From the NCBI GenBank assembly GCA_036172245.1, contig JAYWIR010000194.1, forward strand, positions 1-33,831: DNA of 33,831 nt, written 5' to 3'. The stretch is from Raillietiella orientalis. Its lineage: Eukaryota. A program made the translations under genes and the position numbers. Shown here in pieces: positions 1 to 32,100 of the stretch; the stretch's first letter is position 1; every line of letters starts with the position of its first letter. The notes below the pieces were generated by a model. It did no database searches and was not told where the DNA came from. It saw only the letters and a list, made by a program, of their open reading frames with translations.

Positions 1-667
1 AAAATTTAGGTTTCCCCACAAACCAAATGTCGACGAACTCGTCGCCAATTTCGAGCTTGTGGGGAAGCTGTACGCTTTCTCGAAGCGTCACGCGCGCGCC
101 TACTCGCCCATTAAATGCAGCGTTCACTCCGAAGGTGTTGGGCTTTCTCCACATCGCGAAAACGCTTGCGTATTTTTCCAGTTCAGCGCGGATGGAGTTC
201 TCATCCATCCGCACTGTTGTCCCTGTTAGGTGGACCACAATGGAGTCGTCCACCGTGTGTGGGAGTAAATTGCTGCCCTCAAATTCTACGGGCGTGCAGA
301 GTATCTTGTGGGTAAAAGCTGCATTCTTGCAGATGAGCTCCACCAACTGCCCTCCGCTCCGTATAGAGAGGCAAAGAATTTCATGGTCGGCAATGCCCAT
401 CTTTTTGATGGCATTGCCGAACTTTCTCGCCCTTAACGGGGAATATAAATTGCCTACCTTGTACAGGAGGGCCGGATTGTATCCCTCCTGGATGTAGGAT
501 TGGATTTCGGCGGCGACATCGGGCTTTTCCGCCGCTGCCACCGCGCTCCAGGCCCTCGCCGTAGTGGCGGGTTCAGAAGAAGTGGTGGGGCGTGATCCCA
601 CCTCCTTTGGCTTGGGAGACGCGGTCTTCCCGCCTCTTTCACCTGAAACTGCGGCGTTTACAGGCAT
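1..667 (-). CDS. Beta-family ORF1 (gag-like), N-terminal part, open to the window edge
   Basis: Manual translation from ATG at 667: MPVNAAVS...ARAWSAVAAA...GYNPALLYKVGNL...IRSGGQLVELICK...SIVVHLTG...VDIWFVGKPKF. Colinear with the ORF1 copies at 9418-11033 and 17697-19458, where this motif directly precedes the CCHC knuckles. Absent from the ORF track because it has no stop in the window. Confidence 0.85.
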   Translation of the reverse strand, partial: MPVNAAVSGERGGKTASPKPKEVGSRPTTSSEPATTARAWSAVAAAEKPDVAAEIQSYIQEGYNPALLYKVGNLYSPLRARKFGNAIKKMGIADHEILCLSIRSGGQLVELICKNAAFTHKILCTPVEFEGSNLLPHTVDDSIVVHLTGTTVRMDENSIRAELEKYASVFAMWRKPNTFGVNAAFNGRVGARVTLRESVQLPHKLEIGDEFVDIWFVGKPKF

Positions 668-774
668 TTCTTCCTGTCAACGGCCGCGAAACTCACACGA
701 AACACCAGAAAAGAAAAACTCCTTATCCACGGAGCGCACAACAATTGCGTCCGCCGTACACGCGTAGTCAAGCG

Positions 775-835
775 CTAGAAGTGGTCGATGCTGCTGGCCA
801 TTTACTCCGCGTCCCCTAACAAGTTGCGCGTGCAC
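775..835 (-). pseudogene. Short APE endonuclease remnant (SIDH region)
   Basis: Minus strand reads roughly VH(A)RNLLGDAE*MASSIDHF, matching MRARNWFAGEGGIVRSIDHVF (~17100-17165) and VHARNLEAGEPRIERCVDHVY (~24940-25000). Confidence 0.55.
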
Positions 836-1737
836 TAGGACGATCTGAAAAGATCTGTTTGCGAGTTCTGCAGCCGTTTTCCCTTGGGCCTGCTTCCCGT
901 GGCTTTGGGGAAGGCGTGGCCAGCAGCAGAGACTTTCTCCTGACACACCAATTCTCCCGATGCTAGGACGTCCGGTACCTTTCGGAGTACAAGACCAAGA
1001 CCGAGCGCCAGGTCTGGCAGTCCGGAGAGGCTTGTCTGCTCGACGACCAGGGCCTGGAGTGCTCGGGCGCGGCGAAAGTTCGCCGCCTCCTAAAGCGCTA
1101 CTACTCCTCGTTGTATGCTGTGGAGCCGGCGGAACGCAGTCTCTCGGAGCTGTTTCTGCCGGCGGATTCCCCTGCGGTCGACAATGAGGAATGCGCTACT
1201 CTTGATTTGCTCTTGACGGCGGAAGAAGTGTCTTCCTCCATAGCGGGCCTCAAGAATCGAAAGGTGCCAGGTGAGAATGGTCTGCCTGCGAAGATCTACC
1301 ATGCTTCGCGGCGGAACTCTTCCCCCTAGTGCTCAGGGTTTCTGCGCTGATGAGAGTGACGGGCAATGTCCCGGCCTCGTTTCGCTCAGCAAGGGTGCGT
1401 CTCTTGCCGAAAGGCGGACACATGCGCCATTTAAGCAACTGGCGTCGCATCACCTTGGTGAATGCGGACGACAAGTTGTTCTCCAGGCTGTGGGTCGCGC
1501 GCCCAGGTAGGATCGCTGGATCCGTGGTAAGTCCGGAGCAGTCTTACTCTGTTCCCGGGCGGTCCATGGAGGCGAACCGGTTCTTCGCGCGCACGTGGCG
1601 CAAGCTGCAACGGTGCGTTACGCACGACAACCAGGCAACCGCATCTGGGGATGCCGAGACTAGGCGTTGCTGTATTCGGCCTGGGGAAGCGTCGGGTGCC
1701 TTGGAGATCGCTATCGATATCCGCCAGGCGTTCGATT
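836..1737 (+). mobile_element. Alpha-family ORF2 fragment, left half of a split element (linker + RT N-terminal domains up to DIRQAFD)
   Basis: DDLKRSVCEFC...ERQVWQSG...LLDDQG...YYSSLYA...KVPGENGLP...VRLLPKGG...NWRRITLVNADDK...EQ...PGRSM...IDIRQAFD, with frameshifts and stops. Closest to copies at 23821-24720 and 31360-32260. Confidence 0.9.
1722..1737 (+). repeat. Left copy of a candidate target-site duplication (partner 11128-11143)
   Basis: cgccaggcgttcgatt vs cgcaaggcggtcgact, 13/16 identical. The host RT stops at AFD here and resumes at (AV)DCVNH at the partner. Confidence 0.7.
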
Positions 1738-1739
1738 TT

Positions 1740-1766
1740 CACCCGGATTTCGCCGGGACGTTTATT
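1740..1766 (-). terminator. Element 3' end: AATAAA + CCCGG/CCGGG hairpin + GGGTG(AAAA)
   Basis: Minus strand aataaacgtcccggcgaaatccgggtgaaaa; the same motif ends five other alpha/beta copies. Confidence 0.75.
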
Positions 1767-1955
1767 TTAAAATAAACATTCACAAAGACGTGCAGTGACT
1801 GGAGCATTGTTCCAGCCACGCACGAAGAAACACAGAGCCTCATGAGTCACCGGTTCGCGGACCGGCACGGTCCACCACGGCAGCAGAGCCAAGGGGCAAA
1901 AAACGAAAAAACAATAGAAAAAGAAAAGAACAAACAGGGGGGTTACGGGAAGGGA

Positions 1956-4900
1956 TCACAGTTGCTGGTGGGGCCGTTGCATCCTTTGCAGGATGCCCGC
2001 AAGCTCTTGCTGCATGCTTGGATCCAGGTGGGGCAATTGCGACGCGCTCCTTAGGAACTGGGAGGCTGGCTGGATGGCACCCTGGACGCGTTGTCCTCCC
2101 GTATCCTTGCTTCAAGCGGTGACGATCCCGCGAAGACAGCACAAAGCTGCAAACGAAGCCACAGGCCGTAGGGCGTAGGCAACGATGAGGGCTTTCAGAG
2201 TGTCCTTGGGGTTGCCGCAGAGTACTCCGATAGCCGCGGCAAAGCAAAACCCAAGGGGCCGAAGGGCAACACAATCCTTTTGCAGGTGGGGGAGTGACTC
2301 CCGTTTCTTACACCTTACGCGATTGGGGTCCAACGCTCCCCAGGTCCAGTGCTGTCTGCGGGCGTTGCAGGGGAGTCCCCAGTGCTGCAACAGTTAAGCT
2401 GACTATTGCGATTTTAAGGGGAGAGTGGAGGTGTTCATTAGTAACGGGGGCCACTTGAAACGTCCAATGGGAACGTGGAGGAGCGCGCCCCAGCGAAGAA
2501 GTTTATGGGGAGGCGTATTCGGGGTGGCAGCATCAGTCAGCTGACCCATCTTCCACTCTCCTATCTTCTTCTCCTTTCCGGAGATTTTTACTGTAACCTT
2601 CCACTTAGCTGCAACATCGTTGTCCAGATCTTCCATCAGGGAGGGCAGCGCAGCAGGGAGGAGGGTTCTGCCTGCCCACGCTCTCTTCTTTGGATCCTCC
2701 AGGATCTGACGGAACGAGCAACTTCTGTAACCCCAAACAGAAAACTTCGTTCCTCTTGGGAGCGTTCCAGGCCGAACTGTCCCCACGTTCGAACGGTTTC
2801 CTGGAACCAGGCACTACCGTTCAAAGGTCAACAGGTGTCCAATCCTGGGTTTTTCCGGTACAGCGCAGCCAATCTCCGTAGTTGGAGTCCGCATCGGTTG
2901 ACGCGGCGACGGAGTGCAAGAAACGACATCAGTCCCGTCTTCCCGGTGGCTTGCTGGAGAAGAAGACGTGCGGGGACGCACCAACAGGTGCAATACAACT
3001 CTGGAACGAGTGCCGACAATTGGAACTGGAGCTGGAGCTCCAAACGCTCCAGCGTAAGGAGGCCCAGACCACCGTCCCGACGAGGAGCGTACAAGTCCTT
3101 TAAGCGGACTCGGGCCCTCCCGTTGCCCCGAAGGGCGATACGGAGGAGATCCTTTGTCCGCTTTTTAATTCTCTCTGTAGAAGGACAAACAATAAGCAGG
3201 GAACGGAGAAGAGGAGCAGCGAACGTGTTCCAAACCGCGGCGCGTTAAGGCAGGAAAAACCTGCCGCCTCGGAACGGGCCGATCGCCGTCTCCACTTTTT
3301 GGAAGCAGCCGGACCACGCTTCCGCAGGGGAGTAGTCCCCCGACGGCACATCAAGGTACTTGAAGTACCTCACCGTGGAAATCACCAAACGGACCCAGTC
3401 TTGCTGCCCTGCCCACGCCGCACCAACTGGCTTCACAGACGACTTCGCCCTGTTCACCGTAATTCGGGTTCCCCGATACAGCAGGTCGAAGAACTCCTCG
3501 ACCGCTGAAGCCGGGGTGGACATAGGGAGCAGCAGCAGAAGGTCGTCCGCGTATGCTGAAACGGCCGGCGTACCGGCACAGTCGTGCGGCAGGTGCGCCA
3601 GAGTTCCCCTGTACGCTCTCAGTAGCAACTCAACGTAGGTACTGAAGAGCAAGGGGATCAGGCTGTCTCTTGCCGGATCCCACGCCGCACCGGCACGCCG
3701 TGCACGGTCTGCCCGCTCAAAGTAACGTTGATGAGCGCAACGCGCCAGCAGGAGCGCAGATAGGCCATTAATGAGGCCGGGAACGCCAAGCGTTCCAGAA
3801 GCTCCAGAAGGAGATTCTGGTCGACGCAATTGAATGCTTTCCGCAAGTCTATTGCGTCCGCAAGGGCTTCCTCCCACACCCGACCATCCAACCCCTTGCC
3901 GGCGCACGCACCGGAATTCCGGCTGCGCACCATGCTCCTTTCATGCTGGAGCTCTAGCCAGGTGGAAGCGTGGAACAGGTTCGCCTCCATGCTTCGCCCG
4001 GGAACAGCATATGTCTGTTCCAGTCTGATGAAGATCTTGGCAACCCGTCACAGGCGCTCTGCTTAAACCTTTGCTAGCAACTTGGCGTCCGCATTCACTA
4101 CTGTGATGGAACGCCAGTTGTTCATGCTCCTCAGATCTCCTCCTTTAGGGAGGAGCCGCACCTTTGCCGAACGAAACGAGGCAGGAACGTCACATGTTTC
4201 GCGTATCAGCAAGGTGAGTTGCTGTACGAGGGGGGTAAGCTCAGCCGCGAAAGTTAAATATAACTTCGCGGGCAGGCCGTCCTCCCCTGGAGCCTTCCGC
4301 CTCTTGAGCTTTTCGATGGCCGAGAGGATCTCGCCCATCGTGAAAGGCTCGTAGAGGGTCTTTCTCTGCTCCTCCCCGATCGCTGGAGCGTCTTCCGGAA
4401 GCAGGAGTCGTGAGACGTTCCTTTCCGGAGGTGCCCTGGCATACAGGGAGGAGTAGTAACTCCGCAGCAGGCCGCGGATTTGGGCAGATGCCGAGTGCTC
4501 CTGGCCCTGATCGTCCAGTTCGCTGGCCGATCCGGACTGCCAGGCTTGCCTCTCGGCTCCCGCTTTGTTTTCCGGCAGCCTGCGGATGTCGGGGGTCCTG
4601 GCGTAACGACGGGCCTGCAGGTAGGCTCGTTCGTTACGGACCCTGGACCCAAAACCCGTAGGTAGGAGGTGCAGCGGCAACTGGTTGCAGAACTCCTGGA
4701 CCGACCGCTTCAAGCGGTCCCAATCCTGTAGTTACCGCAGCATGAAGCTCCGTATGAACGTGCGGAAATGTTCCGCCGCGTCCGGGAGCTTCAGCCAGTT
4801 TCTTGGGAGACGCCACGCTGACGAGGGGGGCCCCTGTCTCGCGGATGGATCTCGAGGTCTAACGGGCCATGGTCGGACAGCTCGCACGGTAACTTGCCGC

Positions 4901-5405
4901 GCCTGCCCACGCGAGGGCACCGGTGCTCGTCAAGAAACACGTGTTCAATGCTGTCTTCCATCCCCGGTGCACTGGCCAACAAATCACAGGTGTGCACCGC
5001 CATGCACACCTCGTTGACCAGGTCACGCTCGCGATTCTGCCCATCTGGTTACAGTGGAACGTTGAAATCGCTTGCAACCAGATGGGCATTCTGCACGCGT
5101 GCTTCGGTCAGCCAGTCTCGCCGGAGGGCAAGGAAAAACTCTTTCCTCGCCCTCCTGGTCAATCATGTCCGCGCCCCTCGGCGCGCACACGTTCGTCACG
5201 ATCAGGTCGATCGAGTCGGACCAACTGACAGTCAGCTGGCCGACACGACCGTGATCGTCGAACCGCACTCCACGTGCGGCGGCCTCGATGGCGGGCCCAA
5301 GCAGGTAGGCGACACCACACTTTCTCGATGTTCCACACCGATACCACAGCCGCTCTCCGGAGATGCGTTCGATCTCCTCTGCTCGTACAATGCAGACGTG
5401 TTTCC
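1956..5405 (-). pseudogene. Beta ORF2 (APE-RT-Cys/His), disrupted, lacking the first ~30 codons
   Basis: APE: RLWYRCG..KCGVAY, GRVGQL, VTNVCAP, SDF, SIEHVFL, LSDH. RT: KAPGEDGLP, NWRSITVVNADAK, DLRKAFN, RGIRQ.D.L.PLLF, YADD at 3542-3553, YFKYL. C-terminus: HWGLPCN...RCKKRESLPHLQKDC, stop TGA at 1956-1958. Several frameshifts and stops. Confidence 0.92.
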
Positions 5406-5500
5406 GCGTCTATCCGCCCAAACGTTCGGGCAACTTTGTGCCTGCGTTTTCGCTCGCACTTGTGTGTTCCTGTGCAATCTGCCAAGTAGCATAGTGCAAC

Positions 5501-6544
5501 ATGGCCAGTACACAGGTTAGTGTGGAGGAGCAAGCCACTGGATTCACTTCAGCTGCACTTGAAGCGCCCGCATCATCCGTAATGGTTTCCTCGCCCCCAG
5601 TGAGGAGTTACGCCACCGTTACCTCCCAAAGTCCAGGACCCTGCGATGCGGACTTCGAGGCATATGTGTCATCAGGAAACATGCCTGCACTCCGTTATAA
5701 GGTCAGTGGACCCCTTAACGGGAGAATCGGTCGTGAGTTCAATGATGAGCTCGTCCGGATCGGCGTTAGCGAGGAGGAACTCCTTGACATAATGCCTTCA
5801 GACAGGATGGAATATACGAAGATTCGGTGCAAGAATGCAGCACTTGTTCAGCGCCTTCTACGTAAGGCGTTGACCATCAATGGCAAGGAAGTCCTACCTA
5901 CCGCGATGGACGACTCTTTTGTCGTTCAATTGTGCGATATCGAACCGCAAATCTCCGACCGCGATGTCGTAAGTGTGCTGGCGAAGTTCGCCACGGTGCA
6001 CGCTATGTGGAGGAGGCCATATCCTCTAAAGGATTTCCCCTCTGTCCACATTGGACAAGCCTCCCCGCGGATCACCGTCGCGAACAGGCTTGTTGTGCCT
6101 GAGCAGCTGCAGGTGAACGGCACGGTCGTTCACCTCTGGTTCATGGGCCAGACTCGCGCGTGCCAGCAGTGCGGCAAGGATGGGCACCGAATTAAAGAGT
6201 GCCCCTCTCCTAAATGCCGCTATTGCAAAGATTCCGGGCACGAAATCAAAAAATGCCCGGTACTTGAAAGAAAAAGAGCCGCAGCGGAAATTCGTCGGGT
6301 TCAAGAGACCACTGCACGAAAAGCCGCAGCGGCAAATAAAGAACGTCGTCCGCAAAAACTCCCAAAAAACCACGAGCGATCCGCGGATGAAAAGAAAGCA
6401 TTTCCGCCCGCAACGCCCCGAAAGGGGAAATTCACGGCGGGGAAGCCAATTAAAAAGGGGCGCGAGGGTTTGACGCGTGCCGTGCCCTCCCTCCTGCCGA
6501 ACTCGCAGGCACCTCTTGAGCCAGGAACAATGAAATCTCCGTAA
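5501..6544 (+). CDS. Alpha-type ORF1 gag-like nucleic-acid-binding protein with two intact CCHC knuckles
   Basis: 347-aa ORF. CQQCGKDGHRIKEC (6161-6202) and CRYCKDSGHEIKKC (6215-6256), then a basic low-complexity tail. Homologous to 21250-22356 (CKDAALVQRLL, DQSFVV). The element runs ~5406-6756; the stop at 6544 may be premature. Confidence 0.88.
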   Translation: MASTQVSVEEQATGFTSAALEAPASSVMVSSPPVRSYATVTSQSPGPCDADFEAYVSSGNMPALRYKVSGPLNGRIGREFNDELVRIGVSEEELLDIMPSDRMEYTKIRCKNAALVQRLLRKALTINGKEVLPTAMDDSFVVQLCDIEPQISDRDVVSVLAKFATVHAMWRRPYPLKDFPSVHIGQASPRITVANRLVVPEQLQVNGTVVHLWFMGQTRACQQCGKDGHRIKECPSPKCRYCKDSGHEIKKCPVLERKRAAAEIRRVQETTARKAAAANKERRPQKLPKNHERSADEKKAFPPATPRKGKFTAGKPIKKGREGLTRAVPSLLPNSQAPLEPGTMKSP

Positions 6545-6756
6545 CAACCTGCAGGCAAAGGTAGGAAAACAGGAAGATCGCAACAGTGCGAAGACTTCTT
6601 GCCCCGTTCCTTTGTCCCTTCCGAGTTCCGGACAGGCCCACTGCAGCGCAGGCCTCTCTACAAAGGCTACGAAAGCCGTAAAAAGCAGCGTCGCGACGAG
6701 CTAGAGCACGCTGCATGCAGTCGCCCCATCTCCGACTCGGCAGGTTTCCCCAAGTC

Positions 6757-9417
6757 TCACAAGTGGTGGGGTAAGTTTATTTTTCTATAAAAATACAAAA
6801 TTTACATTCGCACTCTCATTCACTCAATACAAACATTTTGCACTTGGGGGTCCTTGGGTTGCACTAGAGTTCTGCTTTTCAGGGGGGAATTCAAGCTGGA
6901 TGGTCCCGGGCGTTGTCCTGGATCCTCTTCAGGATGAATCGGTACGTCCAGGCGTGGATCTTCCCGCAGTTCCTGATGCCGATTTCCCTCTTCAAGAGCC
7001 CTTGTAGGATCTCCATCGGTGGTGCGGCTCTCCTGGCTTTCCTCATTTTCCACCACCGCACAAGTATGGCGGTGATGAATAGGGCTATGGTCGTCCTCAC
7101 CAAGGGATTGTAACAGGGAACATTACCATCCCCATGAAACCTCCCGGCGAGCATCTCCATAACGGACTTGTTGGTAAGTCCTATGATCCTTTTCAGGATC
7201 AGCCAGTCATGTAGCAGTGTGGGACACGTCAAGACGTGAAGTCTCGTGTCGTCGTCGCGACATGCTGCGCAGTCTCGGTCTTCCCGTCTTCCTGTGAAGT
7301 GCTGCAATCGGGACCCACTCTGGATTGCTACGTGATAAAACATCAGGAGGTCCTCCTGGGTGCCCGGCGGAAGGTCACTCCTCCAGAGCGTCGTGCCGAT
7401 CGCTAACAGGTTGAACCGTTCACTCCCGTAGCGTTCGGTGGCTTCCTGGAGGGCACTGGTGTCACGGTCGTTTTCTTGGATAAGCCTTCGGATTTTTGTT
7501 CTGGCTACCCTCGACCATGCGAAGTCGTTGTGGTTGAACCACACTTCGCGGGTCCTGTGGGTTAACCTTCCTAACATCATCTCTATATACCGAAGTATAC
7601 GTGTTTGATGTAGGTAGCCTCCTCGCCTCCACTCCTGGATTTGCAGTAGGATAACTCTGGACCGCTGGTAGATCCAGCTTCTCGTGCCCGGCGGGACAGG
7701 AAGCAACCACAGGATCACCAGGATGGTCTCGCCCTGCCAGATTTCCCTGCTTCGCGGCACGATCTTGATTTGGTGCTTCCGCACCAGCCGTTGCTTCCTC
7801 CTCCAGATTGGGTCGATTTTTCTCCATACGCCTGCTCGGCCTAGCAGCGCAGTCATCAGGCCTTTCGAGTTGTTCAACAACAAGGCGGAGGCCCTGTGCG
7901 CGGCATACGGCCAGTCATCCCAGTGAGTGGCAATGTCCAGGATGTGTCGCGTATCCATGATTTCTATGGAGTGTTCAAGCGACCTCGTCCCGGAACCGCC
8001 TTCTTCCCTGGGACGACACAGAAGTTTTAATCGGACTCTTGGGCGATAGTGGCCCCACAGTGTTTTTCTCTGCAGCTTGTCGTACTCCCTAGTAGTATCC
8101 TTGTTCATCCTCGCGAAGGCCGCCCCGAAGAGCACTTTCGGAAGGAGTACTCCGTTCCATATGTTGGCCTTTCGCTTCATTCCAAGGTCCGTTCGGGTGT
8201 ACTTGGCTGCTTCCTTGGCCGTTTTCCCTAGGATCTCGGTCCACAATAGCTTCGACGCGGAGACGTCGCCAATGTGGACACCCAGGTACTTGGCCTTGTC
8301 CACCGTTCGGAATCCTCTCCCCGCTAGAGTGGAGAGATCGAGGATTCCAACGGGCAAGAGCTGGCTTTTCTGGGAGTTGATCTTTAGACCCAGGCCTTGA
8401 TCCATCAGGTCTACCACATCCAGAAACGCTCGTTGATTTCTCTCTCCGTTGATAAAGATGAGTAGATCATCAGCGTATGCCAGATGGGTAAGACGCTGGT
8501 CATCGATTGTTCTGCCTTGCAGTAGTCCGCTGTTCTCGATAAAGGACGACAACGCCTCCATGTAGATGACGAACAGCATCGGACTTAGCGAATCGCCCTG
8601 CCGGACTGCCCGTTCCATCCGGATTGCTGCCGTCTCCTGGCCGTTGATTTTGATTCGGCAGTACTGGTTCTGGAGTACCACCCTCACGAAGTTGCTGAAG
8701 TGTTCCGGAAGGCCTAGATTCTCCAGAACCTTCAGCAGCATCCCATGGTCGATGGAGTCGAAAGCCTTCTCCATGTCAGTGAACACCAGCGCCAGATTCT
8801 CGTCGACGTATCGGCTGTGTCCGACGGTTGCCTGGGCACACTTGACATTGTCCGACATGTAACGTCCAGGGACTGCACACGTTTGGACCGGAGAGATGAG
8901 CCTCGACATGACCTTCTCTAAGCGGTTGGACCAGATTTTCGCCAACCACTTGGCATCCGAGTTCAGGATCGAGATTGGCCTCCATTGAGCGACCTGCATG
9001 AGGTCGCCTCCTTTTGGCAACAATCTCATCCGACTCTCATAGAGGGACTGTGGAAGTCTTCCTTCTCCACGGATGCAGAGGGTCAACTGGTGGAACAAAC
9101 GCAGGTAGGCATGCAAGTTCCGGTGATAGTGAGTGATGGGTACGCTGTCTGGGCCCGCTGCCACGTCCTTACGTAGTTGACCAAACGCAGTCTTCACCTC
9201 CTCTTCGGAGAATTCCTCCTCCAATCTGTTCCGCTGGAGATCGTCGGTCCTCTTCTCGAGGTAGCTCAGGAAGGCCTATTGACTAGAGCGACAGAGATGT
9301 TGTCGCCTAAAGTGTTTCATGTAATGCCTTTGAAAGGCATCCACGATGTCCTCAGACGACTGTCGCTTTTGACCGTCGTACTGGATGCAGAAGATATCTG
9401 TTGCCAGATTTCTCTTC
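6757..9417 (-). mobile_element. Gamma-family 5'-truncated non-LTR retrotransposon (youngest-looking insertion)
   Basis: Its ORF2 is clearly divergent from alpha/beta. Short AT-rich 3' UTR ending aataaacttaccccaccacttgtga (6781->6757). ORF2-like sequence extends up to ~9417 through one TAG at 9276-9278. Confidence 0.85.
6891..9224 (-). CDS. Reverse transcriptase + C-terminal Cys/His domain of gamma ORF2 (no endonuclease)
   Basis: 777 uninterrupted codons: AAGPDSVP, QWRPISILNSDAK, DMEKAFD, VRQGDSLSPMLF, YADD at 8466-8477, KYLG, EEGG, CAAC...HVLTC. The listed start is an internal TTG, not a native start. Confidence 0.93.
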   Translation of the reverse strand: MEEEFSEEEVKTAFGQLRKDVAAGPDSVPITHYHRNLHAYLRLFHQLTLCIRGEGRLPQSLYESRMRLLPKGGDLMQVAQWRPISILNSDAKWLAKIWSNRLEKVMSRLISPVQTCAVPGRYMSDNVKCAQATVGHSRYVDENLALVFTDMEKAFDSIDHGMLLKVLENLGLPEHFSNFVRVVLQNQYCRIKINGQETAAIRMERAVRQGDSLSPMLFVIYMEALSSFIENSGLLQGRTIDDQRLTHLAYADDLLIFINGERNQRAFLDVVDLMDQGLGLKINSQKSQLLPVGILDLSTLAGRGFRTVDKAKYLGVHIGDVSASKLLWTEILGKTAKEAAKYTRTDLGMKRKANIWNGVLLPKVLFGAAFARMNKDTTREYDKLQRKTLWGHYRPRVRLKLLCRPREEGGSGTRSLEHSIEIMDTRHILDIATHWDDWPYAAHRASALLLNNSKGLMTALLGRAGVWRKIDPIWRRKQRLVRKHQIKIVPRSREIWQGETILVILWLLPVPPGTRSWIYQRSRVILLQIQEWRRGGYLHQTRILRYIEMMLGRLTHRTREVWFNHNDFAWSRVARTKIRRLIQENDRDTSALQEATERYGSERFNLLAIGTTLWRSDLPPGTQEDLLMFYHVAIQSGSRLQHFTGRREDRDCAACRDDDTRLHVLTCPTLLHDWLILKRIIGLTNKSVMEMLAGRFHGDGNVPCYNPLVRTTIALFITAILVRWWKMRKARRAAPPMEILQGLLKREIGIRNCGKIHAWTYRFILKRIQDNARDHPA

Positions 9418-11033
9418 TCAGGGATGTCCATGGGAATTTCGGCCTTTTCAGGCACCTGAGGCACCTGTTCGTCCTCCACCCCCTCCATCCCCTCCGTGTC
9501 CGCGCGTAGGATTCTCTCGGGCGACGGGTCCCGAGAGTTTCCCACGCTCATGGCACCCTCGCTTGCGGAAGCTATCTCTTCCTCTTCGACGGGGGAGACG
9601 AGCTTCCTTGGCTTTGTGGACTTTCTTCCAGCCTTCTTGCGCGGTGCCGTGGAAACGGAGGCTGCGCTTCCGGCCTCCACGTCGAAGTCGGAAGTGGGGG
9701 ACTCCTGAGGGGAGGACGGACGCCTTACGGCCTGCTTGCCAGCCTTGGAGGGTTCTGGCTGCAACGAGGCTGCCAGCTCCTCCGCGGCTCGCGCGAAGGC
9801 TACGTCAGCGATGGTGGTGTCGATGACGGACGCCGGCGCCGGCTCGCTCCCCCCGCTATTGACAGAGTCAACAGAGGGGTTGTCGTCGGTAGCGGCGATT
9901 TCTGTTTCGCAGCGGTCAGGAATACGCTCGACGACAACGCTGCATTCTTTAATTTGCTCGCTTGCCTGCTGTTTTTTCTGGCGGTACGCGAGCTTTTTCT
10001 CCATTCACCTCTCCTTTTTTGATTTTTTGGCCGTAGCCACCTGCCACCCAGGATCCTGGCTTGTTCTTTCGACTTCTTTGGCGTTGTTCGCCAGGGTCTC
10101 GGGTGCGGCCTGGGCCTTGGGCGCGGGTGGCACAGCTTTCGCGGCAGCTTTCGCCGCCAGGATTTTCTGCAGAAGCCGGGCACGTTTTATAAGGTTTCTC
10201 TTGGAAACCACCCGCACTGGTGCTTTATGGCACACCTTCCTCGTGTGTCCCATGGTTCCGCATACTTGGCACTGCACATTGGGACACCTCTTTTTGAGGT
10301 GGCCCGACGTATTTCAGAAGCCACAGTATTTCGGCTTCCCCACATACCAGAGGTCGACGGTTTCGCCTTCGACCACCAGTTTGTAGGGAAGAGTGCAGCC
10401 CTCCCGAACGGTCACGCGCGCAGTAGTAAGGCCGTGTTGCAGCCCCGTGTAGTCCTCGAAAGGACTAACTTTCGTCCAGTGCGCGTGGACCGTTCCGTAT
10501 TCCTACAACGCGGCGCGAACCTGTTCCTTGGGCATCCGCGCGGTAACACCTAACAGGTGGACCACCATGCTGCGATCCGCCGTAATAGGGAGGAGCCTGC
10601 GCGTCGCCATCACCACGGTGGTTTTAAGCATTCGTTGGGCCAGCTCTGCTTGTTTGCAGAGCACCTCAACGTACTGATCCCCGCTGCGGATGGTCATAGC
10701 GCTGAGCTCCTCCTCTTTGACATCGAGAGCGCGCATGCTCTTCGAAAAGGCGCGCACGCTCTCTAAAGAATGAAGGCTGCCTACCTTGTAGAACAATGAG
10801 GGGATATATCCCTCCTCTACATAGGCCGACAATTACGCCGCGGCTGCAGACGATGGCGCCGACACAACGGCGCTTCACGCCCGCGCTGCAGCGATGACCA
10901 ATTCTCTCGGGACGGATGCCCCCTCCTCCATCGCCTATGGGGGTGACGTTGCCGCCGCGCCATGACTCTCCATCGCCTCTGAAGGCGGCGTTTCCGCTGC
11001 CCCCTGGCCATCCCTGGAGGTCGCGTCAGGCAT
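9418..11033 (-). pseudogene. Beta ORF1, disrupted
   Basis: MPDATS...GYIPSLFYKVG...IRSGDQYVEVLCK...VVHLLG...LWYVGKPKYCGF*NTSGHLKKRC...CQVCGTMGHTRKVC...GWQV...MDIPE, with stops and frameshifts. Confidence 0.88.
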
Positions 11034-11127
11034 CACTGCCTGATCGACCACCGAACCACACGACGCTTGCACTGAGGAAGACTTTTTGTTACGAGGAGCA
11101 CCGAGAAAACACGTCCACCCTGGAGCA

Positions 11128-13248
11128 CGCAAGGCGGTCGACTGCGTAAATCACAATCTCCTTCCGGAGCTCCTGGAACGCCTGAGGCTCCGGGTGCACC
11201 TCGTATCGTATTTGCGCGCTTTCTGAAGCCACGCGCTCATTTCCATCTCCTTCAGCGGCTGCCACGTATACGGCGTGCCGGTGCGGCAAGGCATCAGGCA
11301 GGGCGAAAGCTTAAGCCCGTTGCTCTCCAGCATCTTTTTTGAGTTGGTGCTGAGGAGGTACAGGCTGATGCTGGCCAACCTGCTGAGCTCTTGTCCAGGA
11401 ACGCCGTCCGTGGCAGCCTATGCTGAAGAACTGGTTCCCCTCTTACCCAAGACCAACCCGGCGTCCAGTCTTGAGGATTTCTTCGAGCTGATTCGCCGGG
11501 GAGCGGGCATGAGCGTGAACTGGAGCAAGAGCGTGGTCGTACCTATTGGTGCGGTGTGGGAGGGCAGTCCGACTGGATCCGCCTGGTGATTTCGACCGCT
11601 TCCACCATGCAATATCTGTGCGTTCCGCTGGGGAACATCAGCTCAGTGGAAGTGTGTTCGGACTGCCACCGGAAGTCTACGAATGCCCTGAGCCCGTTCC
11701 TCCATGGCAGGTTCGTCCTTCCGGAGCGGGCCACGATATGGAACACCTTCGTTTTTCCCCTCTTGCGCTTTTTTTTTTTTGTTTGCCCGCTACCCTGCTC
11801 TGCCAAGCTGCAGGCGCACCGCCTGTTGAGGAACGCTCTGTGGGGACCTGAGAGGTCAAGGATACGCCTTAAGGACTTAACGGCGCCGCGTCGGGATGCT
11901 TGTTTGGGCATCGTGACCCTGGAGAGAATCGAGCTGCAGGTGCAGCTTCGGATGTTGGCCCTGTGCGCCGATCTTTGGTCCACTTCTTGGTGCGCTCCCG
12001 CGCGCCTGCTTCTGCGGCGCTTCACAGGTAGCAATGGACTTCTGTCGCTGCGGCCGCACATGGAGCGCGCCACAAGAAGCTTCGGTTTCACCTTGAAATC
12101 GGTGTACCGGTTCCTGGAAGCCCAGGAATGGATCTCCTGCCTCCCAACGAACTTTCAAGCCTGGCGGAAGGAACCGTTGCATGGCTGGGCAAAGCACCAG
12201 GATGTTTTCCTCCTGGAACTCCGTTGCGCTCACCTCTCCCCGTACTGCACGGTTGATAAAGTGTGCAACAGCCAGAAGAAGTGAACTCGCCTGGCCGTCA
12301 CGTCCCTCGCCGATGCGCTGTCAGTCCTCAGGGGAAGAGATGACAGCTGCGATCCGGCGAGATAGGAGGTCGCCTGCACCATCGCAGGAACAACCCGACC
12401 TATTGGCGGCTGGTGGAATTGCGAGCTGGCAGATGCCGCCACGCCTCGCCACATAGCGAAATGACTCCTTCGGTGGAGCGAACACTTGAGTGTGTCCCCC
12501 GAAGAACTTGTGGTCCCTCCCTCGTGTTTGAACACTTCTGTGTTCCCCCTTCCGTGGAAGCAGGACGTCATCATGCTGGTGCATTGGGGTTTTCACTCCA
12601 ACCAGCGGACGAACCGTGTTTCCGGGGGAGTGTCTCTTCAAACTGTAAGCGGTGCGGGGAAGTAACTACGCTCCTGCACCTGCTTCTGGAATGCGGTTTC
12701 CTTCTAAGACTGTGGCGAAGGCTGGCCTAAGCGCTCCTGCACCAGGGGGACACCGCGAGGGATTTGATGCGCCGCTTCTTCACGCCAGGCGGCCTGTCCT
12801 TAGGTGCTCTTGTTGCAACCGTGTGTTGCATTGGTGCCATCGATAAGGCCCACCGACAACTACAGAAGTTGGCCATGCTTCGTCAGCCCACCGGCTTAGC
12901 CAGCGCTAGCATGTCGTCGGCAGCCGAGTGGGAGCATCTTCCGGAGAGCGGGAGGAAGGAGATCGACGCCATCCATCGCCGGTTCTGAAAGGAAGGAACG
13001 GCAGAACCAAAGACTTCTGTCCCCTACCCAATTCGGCCGAGAATAACAAACCCTGTCCCCTGCCCTCCATATCTTTATTTTTGTTTTTTTATACGGTGTA
13101 TTTGTGGTCCCCACCCTCCCGTTCCGGACTTTCAGGATACCGACTTGCGTGTCTGGGATCCCACCCCCTTCGTTATTCTATGTCCTTTGTCCGGCAACTT
13201 TATTCCTGGACAGTTTGTAATAAACGCCCCGGCGCATTCGGGTGATGA
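11128..13248 (+). mobile_element. Alpha ORF2 fragment, right half of the split element, with 3' UTR
   Basis: Begins (AV)DCVNHNLLPELLERL. GIRQGESLSPLL, YAEE (decayed YADD), CKRCGE...HLLLEC, stop at 12988, 3' motif at 13219-13245. Homologous to 22461-23432 and 29169-31370. Confidence 0.9.
13219..13245 (+). terminator. Element 3' end motif
   Basis: aataaacgccccggcgcattcgggtga. Confidence 0.75.
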
Positions 13249-14920
13249 ACAGTCGCCCCCCGAGATCGTTTTGATCTCCTTGACGTCTGCCTCTGAGATC
13301 ACATGGATCTCCTGCACCAGGGCTAGGTCGAACTCACGCAAGGTGTCGGCCGTATCTCGTCTGTTGCCGTCGTCGCGCAGCCCGTTGACGTTCGAACTGG
13401 CCACGCTGAGTCGACGGCGACAGGCGAGCCCAGGTGTTATTCCTGGGAAATCAGCTCTGCGGCGTCCGCCACCTGTTGAAGCAAGACGCTAGGTGGAGGA
13501 GAAGGGACAGGTGCCTCGAGCACCTGGTCTATCTCCTCCATCGGTCACGGCGCGTCGGGCGGGTCAACCTCAGGTGGTGCCGCGCCTACCTGTTGGCCCT
13601 CCTCCATAGGGGTAGGCTGTTCAGGGTCCGCGACGGCAAGGGGGACTTCGTCCTCCTGCTCACCCTCCTCCATGGGGGTGGACGACTCGACGACTTCCGC
13701 ACGTGGGAGTTCCCCCTTCGGGATTCCTACGCTGCCGTCGGTTTCCTGCTTCTCCTCTTCGCTCGTGGAGGGGAGGCGCCTCCTCGGCTTTTAAGCATTG
13801 CGCCCCGTCTTCCGGGGGGGTGCCTCCGAGGAGGAGGATGTGCTTCCGGCCCCCAGTTCGCACTCACGTGCGGATGCCTTCTCTGCCGGAGCCGGCCTTC
13901 GCACGGCCTTGCGTGAGAGGTTCTCACGCTCGGCCAGCGTGGCCGCGAGCTCCTCCGCCTCCTGCGCGAATGCGGCGTCCTCGCTTTCGGCGCGCGTTTC
14001 GCGCGGCTCACCGTCTGTGCAAACAGAGGGTTTGCCGTCGCGAACTTCGGGCGCGATGGAAACGGCGAGAGGAGACTCGTCGCCCCTGGTGTCAGCCTCA
14101 GGAACGCTGATGCGACCCAGTGCAACCGAGCACTCGCGGAGTTTTTTTGACAGCGGGGCGGCTTTATTCTTTTTTCCGGCCGTGTTCTTTTTCTCCGTTT
14201 TCTTTAGTGGTTCTTTCCCCACTTGTTTCTCCTTCCCGGCCTTTACCAGTTGCCATCCTTCCTCCACTACCGCGTCTTCCGCGGATTTATCCTCCGACGC
14301 CTGGGTTGGAGGAGGAGGAGAAAGCTGCTGGGGCCGGCAAGGTTCTCGCTCAGGTCTTTCGGCCTAGTCCATTTTCTTGGCCTGCGCCTTTTTGACAGCA
14401 GGTGGCAACTGGGTGGGGCGTTCAGGGCACACACGACGCACGTGTCCATTAACCCCGCACAAGTGGCACTCGATATTTGGGCACCGCTTGCGCAAGTGAC
14501 TAACTGCATCTCAGTAGACACAATAGCGGGGTTTCCCCACGTACCACAGATCGACGGATTCCTTCGCGACCTCCAGTTTGTGGGGCAACTCAGCACTTTC
14601 ATTGACGGTGACAGGCGCTGCAGCCTGGCCTCCAAAATGGCTATGAAAGCCTTCGAAGATGGTGGGCTTTGGTCAGAACGCATGTACCTCTCCGTATTTC
14701 ATCAGCTCGGAATTGACCTCCGAGCGCGTCACCCGATTTGTGATTCCGGTTAGATGGACCACTACGGAGCGGTTTATGCTAACCGGTAGGATTTTCCGGC
14801 TATCCACATTCAGCGCGGTGTTTATAAGGCGCTGTGCTAAGGCTACGTCTTTCCAGACGACCTACACGCGCTGCCCCCCGCTGAGTACCGAGAGGCCGTC
14901 AAGATCCACTTCTCTTACAC
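13249..14920 (-). mobile_element. Beta fragment: 5'-truncated ORF1 + first ~55 codons of APE
   Basis: DLDGLSVLSGGQRV...VHLTG...LWYVGKP..., decayed knuckles, GWQLVK, then SSNVNGLRDDGNRRD...LVQEIHV...TISGG. Close paralog of 17500-19170. Confidence 0.88.
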
Positions 14921-14924
14921 GAAA

Positions 14925-14952
14925 GTCCTGTTGTCCTGTAGTCCTGTAGTCC
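14925..14952. repeat. 8-bp tandem repeat (gtcctgtw) x3.5 at a deletion junction
   Basis: gtcctgtt gtcctgta gtcctgta gtcc, where ORF2 C-terminal sequence joins mid-ORF1 sequence. Confidence 0.7.
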
Positions 14953-22437: not shown

Positions 22438-22460
22438 ACAATGGAGGGGAGCAACTATTT

Positions 22461-23432
22461 ATCACCCGGGTGCGCCGGGGCGTTTATTAAAAACAATCCT
22501 GGAACAGAGTTCCTGGACAAAGCGAAAGACAAGAGACGAAGGGGGCTGGATCCCCGACACGCAGGTCGGTATGGAGAAAGTCCAGAACGGGAGGGAGGGG
22601 ACCACAAATACACTACTATAAAGAGTAAAAATAAAAATATGGTGATCAGGGGACAGGAGTATTCCGTGAGTCCGTTCCTTCTTTTCTAAACCGGCGATGG
22701 ATGCCGGCGATCTCTCTCCTTACGTCCTGTGGCAGATGGGCCTACTCGGCAGCCGACGACATGCTGGCGCTGGCTAAGCCGGTGGGCTGACGAAGGATGG
22801 CCAGCTTCTCCAACACTCGGTGGACCTTGTCGATGGCGCGGATGCAACACACGGTTGCAACGACAGCACCCAAAGAAATGCCGCCTGGCGTGAAGAAGCA
22901 GCGCATCAAGTCCCTCGCGGTGTCCCCCTGGTGCGAGAGAGCTGAGGCCAGCCTCCGCCAAAGTCCTAGAAGGGCACCGCTGTCTAGGAGCAAGTGCGGG
23001 AGCGGATTTACTTCCCCGCACCGCTCACAGTTTGGGGAGGCAAATCCCCCGGAAACACGGTTCGTCCGCTGGTTTGAGTAAAACCCCAATGTACCAGTTT
23101 GATGACGTCCAGCTTCCACGAAAGGGGGAACACAGAAATGTTCAAACAGGAGGGAGGGACCACAAGTTCTACGGGGGGCACACTCACATGTTCGCTCCAC
23201 CGAAGAAGTCCGTTCGGGATTATGCGAAGCGAGGCGGCGTCTGCCAGCTCGCAGGTCTTCCAGACGCCAATGGGTAGTGTTGTTCTTGCAATCGTGCAGG
23301 CGATCCCATCTCGCCAATTCGCAGCTGTCATCTCTTGCCCTGAGTGCTGACAGCGCGACAACGAACGGCGTGACCGCCAGGCGAGTCCACTTCTCCTGGC
23401 TGTTGCACACCTGGTCCACCGTGCAATACGGG
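22461..23432 (-). mobile_element. Alpha element 3' end (C-terminal ORF2 + 3' UTR + terminal motif at 22462-22488)
   Basis: PYCTVDQVCN...CERCGE...HLLLD...IAGIHRR, ending aataaacgccccggcgcacccgggtga. Roughly 80% similar by eye to 12240-13245. Confidence 0.88.
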
Positions 23433-23820
23433 GGGGCGTTCGCCGCCTGGAGCAAGGCTACGGTAGGACCACACGACCAGGGTGCCATCCAGCCCGCCTC
23501 CCAGTTCCTAAGGATGGCGTCGCGATGGTTCCACCTAGATCCAAGCATGCAGCAAGAGCTTGCTGGCATCCTGCAAACGATGCAACGGCCCCACCAGCGA
23601 CAGTGATGCCTTCCCGTACCCTCCCATTTTTTTTTTGTTTTTGTTTTGTATTTTGGTTTTCCCCCTTTGCATTGCTGCCGTGGTGGACCGTACTGGTCTG
23701 CGAACCGGTGACCCGGCAGGCTCTGTTTCTTCGCGCGTGGCTGGAGCAATGGTCCAGCCAGTGGACGACTTTGTTAAAGTTTATTAACTAATAAACATCC
23801 TGGCGAAATCCGGGTGAAAA
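23433..23820 (+). mobile_element. Beta element 3' tail (~390 bp) inside an alpha host
   Basis: GAIQPASQFLR...LDPSMQQELAGILQTMQRPHQRQ* plus 3' UTR and aataaacatcctggcgaaatccgggtgaaaa; inverse paralog of 1737-2120. Confidence 0.88.
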
Positions 23821-28624: not shown

Positions 28625-28629
28625 ATTTT

Positions 28630-29168
28630 ATTGCTGGCGAGAAGGCCGTCGGGCGTCCGGCTTGGCCTCAGGAGTCACCCACTTCCAACCCTGAGGTGGA
28701 GGCCGGAAGCACAGCTTGCATCTCCACCGGACTTCCCAAAAAGGCTGGACGAAAGTCCACAAAGCCACGGACGATCGTCTTGCCCGACGAAGGGGAAGAG
28801 ATGGCTTCCAAAAGCGAGGGTGCGATGAGCGTGGGAAACTCCGAGGACTCCTCTCCCGATAGACTCCCTCGCTTCGGCACGAAGGGGATGAAGGAGGTGG
28901 AGACCGAACAGGTGCCCCAGGTGCCTGAAGAGGCCTCCGTCCCCATTGACATCCCCAACACTTGCTCCGCGGAAGGTGCTGCAACGCCACTTTTCCAGAA
29001 ATAATGACGGGAATCGCCTCTCGTCGTCGTCTGCTGATCGCCTGCTAGAACGTCAACGGACTAAGCGATGACTGCAAGAGGCGTAACGTGGTCGCCACTC
29101 CAGCATCCTTCGACGTGGTGCTGCTGCAGGAGATCTACGTGATCTCCGCAGATCAAGCCCGGGAGATT
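28630..29168 (+). mobile_element. Beta fragment: ORF1 C-terminus + APE start
   Basis: KKAGRKSTKPR...SEGAMSVGNS...EQVPQVPE (paralog of 9420-9740), TAATG at 29002-29006, then MTGIASRRRLLIAC*NVNGL...LLQEIYVISADQAREI. Confidence 0.88.
29002..29006 (+). promoter_or_regulatory. Overlapping stop-start TAATG between ORF1 and ORF2
   Basis: ORF 28696-29004 ends in TAA, whose last A starts ATG ACG GGA ATC GCC of the APE frame. Confidence 0.72.
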
Positions 29169-32100
29169 TCTCACCCGGTCACGTCGCAATGTTTATTTCA
29201 TATAAATTCAACAGAAACAATTATATAAAATAAACCAGTTGGGGATCATGCCCCCAACCGACCAAGGCACAAGTATCAAAAGTACATTGCTGGCACGCAT
29301 GCCAGAATAGCACAGAACGGTTTGAAGGAACTGGGAAAACAAACAAACAGAAACAAGAGAAAAAGAAATCAACGGGGGACGCCGGGACCAATCTTTGGGA
29401 TCGCTCTGGTTCGCTCCGGGATAATAGGAATTGCACCAATATTTTAGCAGTGCGAGCGGGAAGGGGTATAAGTGTCCTTCAGACGTAGTGGTCACCGGAT
29501 TAAACCGTTCCTAAAAGTCTGTAAGCCGGCGGTGGATGGCGGCAATGTCCTCTTTGACATCGTCACAAAGATGAGACCTCCTAGCAGCGTTTTCGATGGA
29601 TTCTCCTGCAAACCGGTGAGCCTTCCTTCGCTGCGCTTACAACTACAGGGCGAAGCGGGCCTTCACGACTGCGCGAACGCAACACATGGTTGCGACAATC
29701 GCGCCTACCGAAAATCCATTCCTCATGAAGAAGCGCCGAAGCACATCAATAGCAGTGCCTTCCGGCGGCATGACTGAAATCAGCCTTCGCCACAGTTTAC
29801 GGAGGTCACCGCTGTCCAGGAAAAGGTGCGGAAAAGACTTGATCTCTCCGCATCACAAACAGTTTGGCAGAGCATCTCCCCCGGAAACGATGCTTCGTTG
29901 CCGATTACAGTGGAAACCCCAGTGTAAAAAAAGCAGCACATCTTGCTTCCACTTCAAGAGGAACACGGAGCTGTCCGAACAAACGAGGAGGATTACTCTC
30001 TTATCGAAGGGTACACTTGAATGTTCACTCCATTGAAGCAGGTTCTTCGCCCGATTAGGAGAAGTGGACTTTTCCATCAGCTCCTCTGTCGTCCAGCAGC
30101 CGAGGAGCTCAGTGACTTCCTTTCTTGAGCAGAACTCCCATTTCGCCGGTATGCAACTGTCGTTGCTTGACCTGAGAGCAGACAGCACTGCGGTGAGAGG
30201 TCTGGTAGCCATACGATCCGAAATCTTCTTGTCCTGCATGACCTCGTCCATTGGATGACTGAGGAGAAGTCGCAGGCTCCGAAGATCTTCCAAACGCGAT
30301 CCATTGGAAGCTGCCTACGATGAAAAGATTCCTGTTGCCATGCTTCAATGTTCATGGGGCGACAGGAGATCCAACATTGAGCTTCCAGCAGTGAGGACAG
30401 CTGCCTCAGCGGAAAGCCAAACCCTATTCTCGTGTGCCGAAAGTGGGGTAGCAACGAAAGCAGTCCCTCGCTTCCCGTGCAGTGCCTTAGTAAAAATCGT
30501 GCGGGTACGCATCACAACGTACACCACAGCTCCACACAGAGCCGCAGCATTCGAAACTGCACCTGCAGCTCGATGCTTATTAAGTCTAGGATGACCAGGC
30601 AGGCATCCTGACGCGGCGCCACCAAGTCTTCAAATCTTACGCGGGATCTTGCACCCCGCCCCCCAACGTTTTGCGTAGAAGGGGCTGCGTCCAGACTTTA
30701 ACTTCCTAGGGGAGTGAGCAAACAAAAAACAGGATGCAGAGGAGGGGGACAACGAAAATGTTCCAGATGCTGGCCCGTTCCGCCAAGACGAACTCGCCTC
30801 CTGAGAACGGTCCAAGTGCACGCTCTGCCTTCGGTAGGAAGTCCGACCACGCTTTTGTGACGCAGAACTCGCCCAACGACACGCTGAGGTACCTTAGGTA
30901 CCTGGCTGTGGGGATCCCCAGACAAATCTAGTCGGACTGTCTTTCCCACGTCGCTTCAACCGGAACAACCATGCACTTGCTCCTGTTGACGCTCAAGCCC
31001 GCACCGCGACGAATCAATTCAAAGAAATCTTCAAGCGACGCTGCCGGTGTTGACATGTACAACAGGAGAAGCAGGTCGTCAGCATAGGCTGCCATGCCCG
31101 CCGTGCCTGCACAGGAGCTCAAGAGGTTGGATGGCGTCAGCATGTGAGCCTTCAGCACCATTGCAAAATTGATGCTAAAGAGCAGGAAGCTTAAGCTATC
31201 GCCCTGCCTAATTCCTCGCCAAACCGGCACGCCGTACACGTGACAGCCACTGAAAACAATGGATGTAATCGCGTTTCGCCAGCAGGAGCGCAAGTACACC
31301 AACAGGGATGCCGGGAGGAACAGGCGTTCCAAGAGCTCAAGAAGAAGCTTTTGGTTTACGCAATCCAAAGCTCTGTGCAAATCGACTAAGGCTTCCTGGG
31401 TTTCCCTTTGCGACCCGCGCCTGCGTCGGTAAGAAATCGAAGGCGTTGCTTCCGCACGACGATCCATCGCCTGGCGATTCTGCAATTGCAGCCATATGAG
31501 GATACATAAGAGGTTCGCGTCCATGGATCTCCCAGGAGCAGTGAAGGTCTGTTCCGATCTTACCAAAACTCCGCGATCTTCCCCATCCGCGCCACTCGAA
31601 CTTTCCAGAACAACTTGACGTCCGAATTCACTAATGTGATTGGAAGCCAGTTTTTCAGTTGGCGCAAATCTCCGTCTTTCGGCAGGGGACGCACCTTGGC
31701 TGAGCGAAACAAGGAGAGGACATCGCCCGAGTCTCACATCAGCGACGGGAGTCGGAGCACCAGGGGGATGAGCTCCGCCGCAAAACACTTGAAGAATTCC
31801 GCGGGCAGTCCATCCTTGCCTGGCGCTTTTCGTCTCTTGAGCCGCGAGATGGCCGAAGAAATTTCCTCTGCCGTGAAGGGCTCATCGAGACGCGCGCGTT
31901 CCACCTCGTCTACAACAGGTGCATAAATCGGCAGAAGCAGCTCGGAAAGACTGCGTTCCGTTGGTGCCTCTGCATACAGAGAAGAGAAATAGCGCCTAAC
32001 TATCCGCCGCACATCGTCTGGAGCCGAGCATTCCCGGTCCTGGTCGTCGAGCAGAACTGTCGCTCCTGACTGCCAGACCTGGCGCTTAGCCTTGGACTTG

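Follow-up and report, generated by a model that had tools for sequence, protein, structure and literature searches.

Five nested L1-like retrotransposons in a contig of Raillietiella orientalis lie at landing sites reused among related families

We examined a stretch of DNA from Raillietiella orientalis that is the entire contig JAYWIR010000194.1 (C194; 33,831 nt, hereafter the window) of a 210-Mb assembly in 491 contigs (GCA_036172245.1). Its content is, from end to end, DNA of retrotransposons without long terminal repeats (LTRs). Within the window, five long interspersed nuclear elements (LINEs) lie inside one another on alternating strands, in the order beta'(-) > alpha(+) > beta(-) > X(+) > gamma(-). 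An earlier note on this DNA had proposed a nest of this order and strand alternation, and both are borne out by layer ages and by natural empty sites, which we found for all four inner links; the five-layer nest is therefore confirmed, with corrected boundaries and family labels. However, it is not the one-off stack for which it was taken, as five of the seven junctions mark fixed landing sites that recur at dozens of loci. LINEs insert by target-primed reverse transcription, and it is likely that the nest grew by successive independent insertions of this kind, with the endonuclease of each family favouring a fixed asymmetric site in the coding sequence of its relatives.

The insertion of beta into alpha can be read at both of its ends (coordinates of all features are given in Table 1). 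The reverse transcriptase (RT) of alpha had been reported to stop at ...IRQAFD (1737) and to restart at 11128 with a target-site duplication (TSD), and this holds. We used natural empty alpha copies as the uninterrupted reference, instead of excising 1738-11143 in silico. In 16 such copies (L111, L125-L134 and L136-L140) the equivalent of 826-1737 runs directly into 11128 onwards and the 16-nt word occurs once; therefore, the TSD is real. The two copies in the window agree at 13 of 16 positions. At position 4 the left copy deviates, position 10 (11137) holds a recurrent variant of the right copy, and the mismatch at position 15 probably stems from the A-tail of beta. The letter at 11137 was not T in 13 of 30 filled loci (G in 10), whereas all 25 left copies and all 14 empty sites had T there (Fisher p 3e-6); the filled loci were found partly with a query that itself carried G, and the count replaces an earlier, stricter pattern (7 loci). 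Carriers of G share slightly more alleles on the beta side (p 0.02, aided by one duplicate pair) and none in excess on the alpha side (p 0.66). The variant may derive either from a beta RNA that brought upstream host letters with it or from a near-palindrome mis-copied in gap filling. The two beta parts, 1738-5383 and 9420-11127, are of one beta family: 10 loci hold both, 212-219 nt apart, without the insert at 5384-9419.

That insert consists of X and gamma. Comparison with empty betas places the start of X at 5384 and not, as the earlier note had it, at 5406, and the X target word recurs behind the X tail in L144. X is closest to the element at 29168-33774, and the L144 copy continues into a second open reading frame (ORF2) of 1312 aa that encodes an apurinic/apyrimidinic endonuclease (APE) and an RT. 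Empty X copies run past 6744 into the remainder of ORF1, and full gamma copies of 5.6 kb lie between two copies of the 6733-6744 word, which together rule out that X and gamma are one convergent element or that gamma was twin-primed. In the gamma piece of the window a single stop (9276-9278) precedes an open RT frame of 794 aa. Absent at 9419|9420 are ~2.9 kb of the gamma 5' part, the ~4.6-kb remainder of X and 215 nt of beta, and layers 4 and 5 therefore lack their right-hand halves; a local deletion has left these two inner layers one-sided. A gamma merely truncated at its 5' end at 9419 is insufficient as an explanation, since the X remainder and the 215 nt of beta are absent too. None of 39 other matches spanned 9419|9420, and no clear microhomology was found there.

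The junctions unique to the window (9419|9420 and 776/833) could also be assembly chimeras, in which case the inner and outer layers would not be one molecule. The contig is short (33.8 kb) and all repeats, and among 8 of 66 pieces inspected no contig of sequencing run X1 bridges 9419. However, both beta parts are of the same family and of matching age, in the right order and 215 nt apart, and one X1 contig, from a run that may be related to the assembly source and so does not count as independent support, bridges 618-866 with 7 differences. We regard a chimera as very improbable. Among the sequencing runs listed, no RNA run held the window and one DNA run held a small share of it.

On the outside, the alpha tail abuts the APE gene of beta' at 13249, and 39 of 40 other matches span this junction. 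At its left end alpha lacks ~2.85 kb of its 5' part and is joined, with a 4-nt microhomology (829-832), to a piece of beta' at 777-833 that comes from 354 nt away from the usual alpha site. The four loci that this piece resembles (Table 1) are loci with alpha at its usual beta' site, and we infer that the piece belongs to the same beta' copy as 13249 onwards. No TSD was found at this outer-left junction, and 0 of 39 other matches span it. A twin-priming inversion of alpha's own APE was rejected as its source, as it matches beta' at 84-89.5% and has no such match to alpha. The 5' end of a further LINE, epsilon, cuts the outer beta' at 776/777 and stands outside the alternating series; epsilon usually joins an alpha-type ORF2 at a position matching window 1088-1095, and here it lies off-site, in beta' and on the same strand. 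At the other end the outer beta' stops at 14921 without a 5' end, and a short imperfect tandem repeat (14922-14951) and then another beta'-type 3' region follow.

The ages of the layers, measured as difference from the majority letters of each family, follow the nest. Majorities were taken from 4-50 copies per block, picked by likeness to the window, and one beta' block with too few copies was left out. Divergence was 10.7+-0.9% for beta', 8.3+-0.9% (left) and 8.7+-0.6% (right) for alpha, 7.5+-0.4% (3' part) and 8.2+-0.7% (5' part) for beta, 4.9+-0.6% for X and 3.4+-0.4% for gamma. The alpha and beta ages overlap within error, and the remaining layers are ordered as the nest predicts. By this measure layers become younger inwards and the two halves of a layer are alike, as had been predicted; halves of clearly different age or subfamily were looked for and not found. 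Shared minor alleles were weakly correlated between the alpha halves (rho 0.49, p 0.03; 19 copies with both parts) and uncorrelated between the beta halves (rho -0.11, n=10). The further expectation that ORFs would be best preserved in the two inner layers held clearly for gamma, but not for X, with 3.2 frame breaks per kb against 3.6-4.4 in alpha and beta. The frame-break count of gamma (2.7/kb) was discarded because its reference, L066, is itself apparently frameshifted (RVT_1 covers model positions 3-165 there and 2-205 in the window), and that of beta' (12/kb) is inflated by a reference only 63% identical.

We also examined how often the same sites are used elsewhere in the genome. In each search the best 40 of 144-1300 candidates were scored; junction queries were taken from the window, and element-only queries were added so that the flank was not selected. 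Junctions 1737 (23 matches with at least 120 nt of host), 11127 and 5405 were each crossed by 39 of 39 other matches, and junction 6745 was spanned in full by 25 of 39. Flanks were read for all 29 other beta loci cut out, for the 39 first-listed alpha loci (38 readable) and for the first 20 of 39 gamma and of 39 X loci. Beta tails lay at the KAFD codons of an RT in 22 of 29 cases (17 directly, 2 with short flanks at contig ends and 3 in tandem behind another beta). X started at one APE site in 20 of 20, in hosts 68-93% like the beta of the window; one of these flanks had no BLAST match but carried the same word. Gamma tails were found at the X ORF1 site in 13 of 20, at one alpha' ORF1 site in 5 and elsewhere, with identical flanks, in 2. 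Alpha tails lay at one beta' APE site in 17 of 38, and this site was reached with different 5' truncations (L125, L136, L139 and L097). Thus, among the matches listed, more than 20% of flanks fall in one sequence type and at one position for each of alpha, beta, X and gamma. The hosts of beta (alpha, beta', other lineages 70-85% alike and once beta itself) are far more varied than their guests. All four nest sites are antisense to the host, and any chain of such insertions therefore alternates in strand; because an asymmetric site sets both position and orientation, the alternation needs no selection on orientation.

Table 1. Features of the window, with the comparison on which each rests
Positions	Strand	Feature	Comparison
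1..776	-	Young LINE epsilon (5' untranslated region (UTR) and start of ORF1)	2.7% from family majority
777..833	-	Outer beta', left remnant (late APE, IDHF motif)	84-89.5% to beta' in L125, L097, L139, L136
834..1737	+	Alpha, left half: ORF2, endonuclease-RT linker to RT motif IRQAFD	89.6% to L139 (empty alpha, full length)
1722..1737	+	Left copy of beta TSD, in RT KAFD-motif codons	Word occurs once in 16 empty alphas
1738..5383	-	Inner beta, 3' part: tail (AATAAA...CCGGGTGA and short A run), ORF2 RT, most of APE	91% to the intact C59 beta
5372..5383	+	X target word within the beta APE; 12-nt TSD, left copy (the deletion removed the right one)	Empty vs X-filled betas
5384..6744	+	X: 5' UTR and zinc-knuckle ORF1, alpha-lineage family	zf-CCHC; 94% to L144
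6733..6744	+	Gamma target word within the X ORF1; 12-nt TSD, left copy	Both copies in L141-L143; single in L050, L051, L118
6745..9419	-	Gamma: 3' half of a distant LINE lineage	RVT_1 5.7e-34; 27-35% protein identity to alpha, beta, X
9419..9420	.	Local deletion junction, ~7.7 kb	Sizes from L141-L144 and C59
9420..11127	-	5' part of inner beta, with ORF1 and 5' UTR	90% to C59 beta
11128..11143	+	Right copy of beta TSD; T-to-G variant at 11137	Recurrent variant
11128..13248	+	Alpha, right half: remaining RT, C-terminal part, 3' UTR, tail	86% to L139
13249..14921	-	Outer beta' with the start of APE and most of ORF1	Entered by alpha at commonest alpha site; weak Exo_endo_phos match
23440..23818	+	Truncated second beta, ~380 nt, 88% to intact beta	RT motif of 70%-related alpha' host (host -)
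29156..29175	-	X-like element tail	Same APE site, in a further beta-type host (77% to beta), break 29167

Several other junctions of the window and of loci elsewhere were recorded alongside these sites. The other side of the second beta at 23440-23818 joins an alpha 3' part (82%), which suggests a further deletion or a mosaic. At 33760-33831 a gamma-type 5' end interrupts an X-like element at the gamma site (33774); a 169-aa stop-free frame antisense to the X-like ORF1 (33317-33826, +) is probably a by-product. At 22449-22460 an alpha-type tail stands head-to-tail on the 5' end of the alpha piece at 19993-22449, with a target-like word between them, and likewise at L132 and C9. The second gamma site, in the ORF1 of alpha' (window 26209 equivalent), is occupied at L045, L110, L124, L214, L216, L226, L229 and L233. 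Near 6.221 Mb of G000:C5 (L039/L040) the 5' end of one beta is joined to the RT motif of another (92%), a case of self-targeting. Recurrent breaks in beta ORF1, at the equivalents of 9931 and 9742-9746, are joined to an alpha-like tail region and a beta' 5' end (L013, L016, L018, L022, L105, L110, L114, L116, L117, L120, L122 and L124) and are probably two more landing sites.

The recurrent junctions arose by independent insertion. No fixed difference separated filled from empty alpha hosts over 1073 positions, and a tree of 25 filled and 16 empty hosts required 10 changes and rejected a single filled clade (approximately unbiased test, p-AU 2.3e-9). Shared minor alleles were uncorrelated across the five junctions (rho -0.32 to 0.08, p 0.17-0.96), compared with rho 0.08-0.51 in within-element controls, 4 of 5 of them with p<0.03, and the guest side was less diverged than the host side at 5 of 5 junctions. 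Since the filled hosts are not one clade and variants do not correlate across junctions, the insertions are independent. If instead each junction had arisen once and the composite had then been copied, by segmental duplication or read-through retrotransposition, the base-identical junctions and the few pairs of loci with near-identical flanks would follow readily, and identical TSDs produced by post-insertion copying are described for LINEs in centromere satellites in the available text of bioRxiv 10.64898/2026.09.17.752431. However, such copying fits neither the scattered filled hosts, without a fixed difference from the empty ones, nor the variants that stop at the junctions, nor the lesser divergence of guests at all five; the same sites are also used in other host families, twice more in the window itself (23818 and 29167). 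Amplification of the composite as a unit is largely refuted by the host tree, fixed-difference and allele tests, and we consider a copied origin of the junctions improbable.

Inherited composites that were later scrambled by gene conversion or recombination might mimic independence. Deletions and mosaics are common at these loci, and a long branch unites L122 and L128, which lie on one contig, even though one is filled and the other empty. Yet linkage persists over equal distances within elements and falls to zero exactly at the junctions, and conversion would not put beta into the homologous motif of families 70% diverged. Scrambling therefore appears highly improbable, and independent insertion at each site is the reading that we retain.

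What selects the site is less certain. According to the accessible text of PMC4494074, target choice in LINEs is made mainly by the endonuclease, and by analogy with the biology of Tx1 and R1 the endonuclease would be the selector here. Alternatively, a short word alone (TCGA-like for beta, CAG or CAA for alpha) may be recognized, with chromatin drawing elements to LINE-rich clusters such as centromeres. This would fit the nest and its independent insertions equally, altering the selector only. Among the off-site beta tails 6 of 7 follow TCGAT or TTGAT, CAG or CAA follows 33 of 38 alpha tails, and many loci are on short contigs or near contig ends; clusters of Zepp and ZeppL are linked to centromeres in the parts of PMC3446292 and PMC8226300 available. 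However, such words occur many times per 5.6-kb element, and yet X uses one position in 20 of 20 cases and beta in 22 of 29, with hosts 68-96% alike; in the off-site copies, of which one end was seen, the short word may be a terminal part of the element itself. Selection by a short word and chromatin alone is thus possible, but we think it unlikely for the system as a whole. Alpha looks more like a family guided in this way, whereas X and beta look more like cases of long-sequence recognition.

A number of points weigh against independent insertion at endonuclease-favoured sites. The alpha site is only a preference, as 21 of 38 tails, 2 of which are ambiguous, lie at other places; among the beta tails 7 of 29 are off-site, 6 of these with the short words described above. 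Each search scored the best 40 candidates, which limits the fractions to copies closely related to those in the window. The left part of beta is internally uneven in divergence (9.1% vs 5.8%). The within-element control for X was not significant, junction samples were small (n=9-27), several pairs of loci are apparent post-insertion duplicates (L106/L107, L189/L190, L217/L218 and L149/L153), and the tree and allele tests leave recombination among copies outside their model. The outermost link, for which the earlier note had ~60 nt, fits in family, strand and order, but the piece, 57 nt long and lacking a TSD, does not point to any particular beta' copy.

We nevertheless favour successive target-primed insertion, which would have proceeded as follows. 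Alpha would have entered the APE gene of beta', beta the KAFD codons of the alpha RT with a TSD of 14-16 nt, X the APE gene of beta with a TSD of 12 nt, and gamma the ORF1 of X, also with a 12-nt TSD. Two local deletions, of ~7.7 kb at 9419 and of ~3.2 kb at 833, would later have trimmed the stack, the latter perhaps already at insertion. More tentatively, these families might form an evolved two-way network, in which endonucleases aim at the catalytic-motif codons of sister LINEs and beta may carry upstream host letters on its RNA, although we hold this to be rather doubtful. If true, the target codons could not easily mutate away, and each hit would disable a relative and use harmless ground. 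Read-in of upstream host sequence has been described for R2, and such read-in by beta, if true, would account for its exact 5' junctions and for the position 10 variant of the right TSD.

Judged from sequence, all five layers are L1-like APE-RT retrotransposons. ORF2 of intact alpha, X and gamma copies holds Exo_endo_phos and RVT_1, the domains of APE-type elements of the L1 group; beta has RVT_1 and a weak zf-RVT, in an open frame that begins downstream of the APE. A separate ORF1 with a CCHC knuckle is present, with zf-CCHC found in X, gamma and one beta'-type ORF1 and weakly in beta; a Pfam scan of alpha ORF1 gave no knuckle match. No LTRs were found, TSDs measure ~8-16 nt against empty sites, and truncated alpha and beta copies share a fixed 3' end and vary in 5' truncation. 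The best solved-structure match of intact alpha and X ORF2 is human LINE-1 ORF2p (PDB 8sxt and 8uw3, E ~1e-43), with the R2 structure far weaker (1e-12 to 1e-16). Relatives in protein databases are 24-35% identical, and the nearest of them fall outside the genome's own clade in a FastTree protein tree that combined 76 element rows with the 6 outgroups, out of 15 selected, that survived a length filter. In this tree the alpha lineage (alpha, alpha' and X) has a support of 0.95 and the beta group (beta and beta') a weak 0.70, and gamma is distant. Proteins of intact ORF2 are 68% identical between alpha and X, 54% between alpha and beta, and 27-35% between gamma and the other three. Therefore, the two layers that the earlier note had called alpha are different families (alpha and X), as are the two called beta, with beta and beta' layers at 66-82% DNA identity; likewise 29511-32260, suggested as an alpha reference, is X-like (83%) and only 69% like alpha. 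Tails of the alpha and beta lineages in the window (1738-1765, 13219-13248, 22452-22485, 28597-28625 and 29168-29200) consist of AATAAA, a GC-rich word ending in CCGGGTG and 2-4 A, without a long poly(A). A 3' hairpin in these tails was rejected, as 6 of 6 folded no more stably than shuffled sequences (z -1.5 to +2.0).

Human L1 uses a loose T-rich site and has a long poly(A) tail. Its ORF2p has the same APE-RT layout as the ORF2 of intact alpha and X; unlike L1, the elements described here use fixed sites and have the short tails given above. In behaviour the system works like Tx1 and Zepp, by analogy and without implying kinship of clades. The available text of PMC4494074 and PMC6719617 names, as targets in the Tx1 clade, the piggyBac-type Tx1D for Tx1L, Mariner-N4_AMi for Tx1-Mar, LTR elements for Tx1-8_Crp and Tx1-4_AMi, and Harbinger for Tx1-9_AMi. 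There as here, an APE-RT LINE occupies one position inside another transposon, with a near-fixed TSD and tandem copies that sandwich the TSD, and the measure of PMC4494074, more than 20% of flanks, describes alpha (17/38), beta (22/29), X (20/20) and gamma (13/20) as well. However, the Tx1-clade targets named in that text are DNA transposons, LTR elements, RNA genes and microsatellites, not LINEs, whereas here they are coding motifs of sister LINEs and the targeting runs both ways, from the alpha lineage into beta APE and from beta into alpha RT.

Zepp of Coccomyxa and ZeppL of Chlamydomonas are described, in the parts of PMC3446292 and PMC8226300 available, as L1-clade LINEs that nest into their own copies at probable centromeres. 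As in those systems, L1-type LINEs here insert into existing LINE copies and form nested clusters, often at contig ends. In Zepp, one family targets its own copies and builds tandem arrays of 3' ends, in one cluster per chromosome; in R. orientalis, by contrast, at least five families target each other, antisense and often at full length, and matches fall at several places on larger contigs. The self-targeting of Zepp and ZeppL is not the rule here, as insertion is mostly cross-family and antisense, with beta in the RT motif of beta seen once (C5b) and some tandem reuse of sites. A literature search covering mainly open-access papers found nothing on LINE families that target each other's coding motifs, and the accessible part of PMC13269885 held nothing on LINE-into-LINE targeting. 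Target-specific LINEs are already known; what would be new among them is that sister LINE families aim at each other's coding motifs, in both directions and antisense.

The nest itself is ordinary for a LINE-rich region, and the point of interest is the rule that builds it. In annotation, recurrent junctions of this kind would be taken for composite elements or duplications. Several of the APE endonucleases are close relatives (ORF2 53-71% identical) whose target sites differ and can be mapped, and they offer a natural series for the gain and switch of specificity, which bears on tools for site-specific gene insertion. Since near-intact natural copies exist, with ORF2 frames of 1203 and 1312 aa, these endonucleases can be assayed. 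The LINEs of R. orientalis are also a case in which the use of transposons as landing sites by other transposons can be tested.

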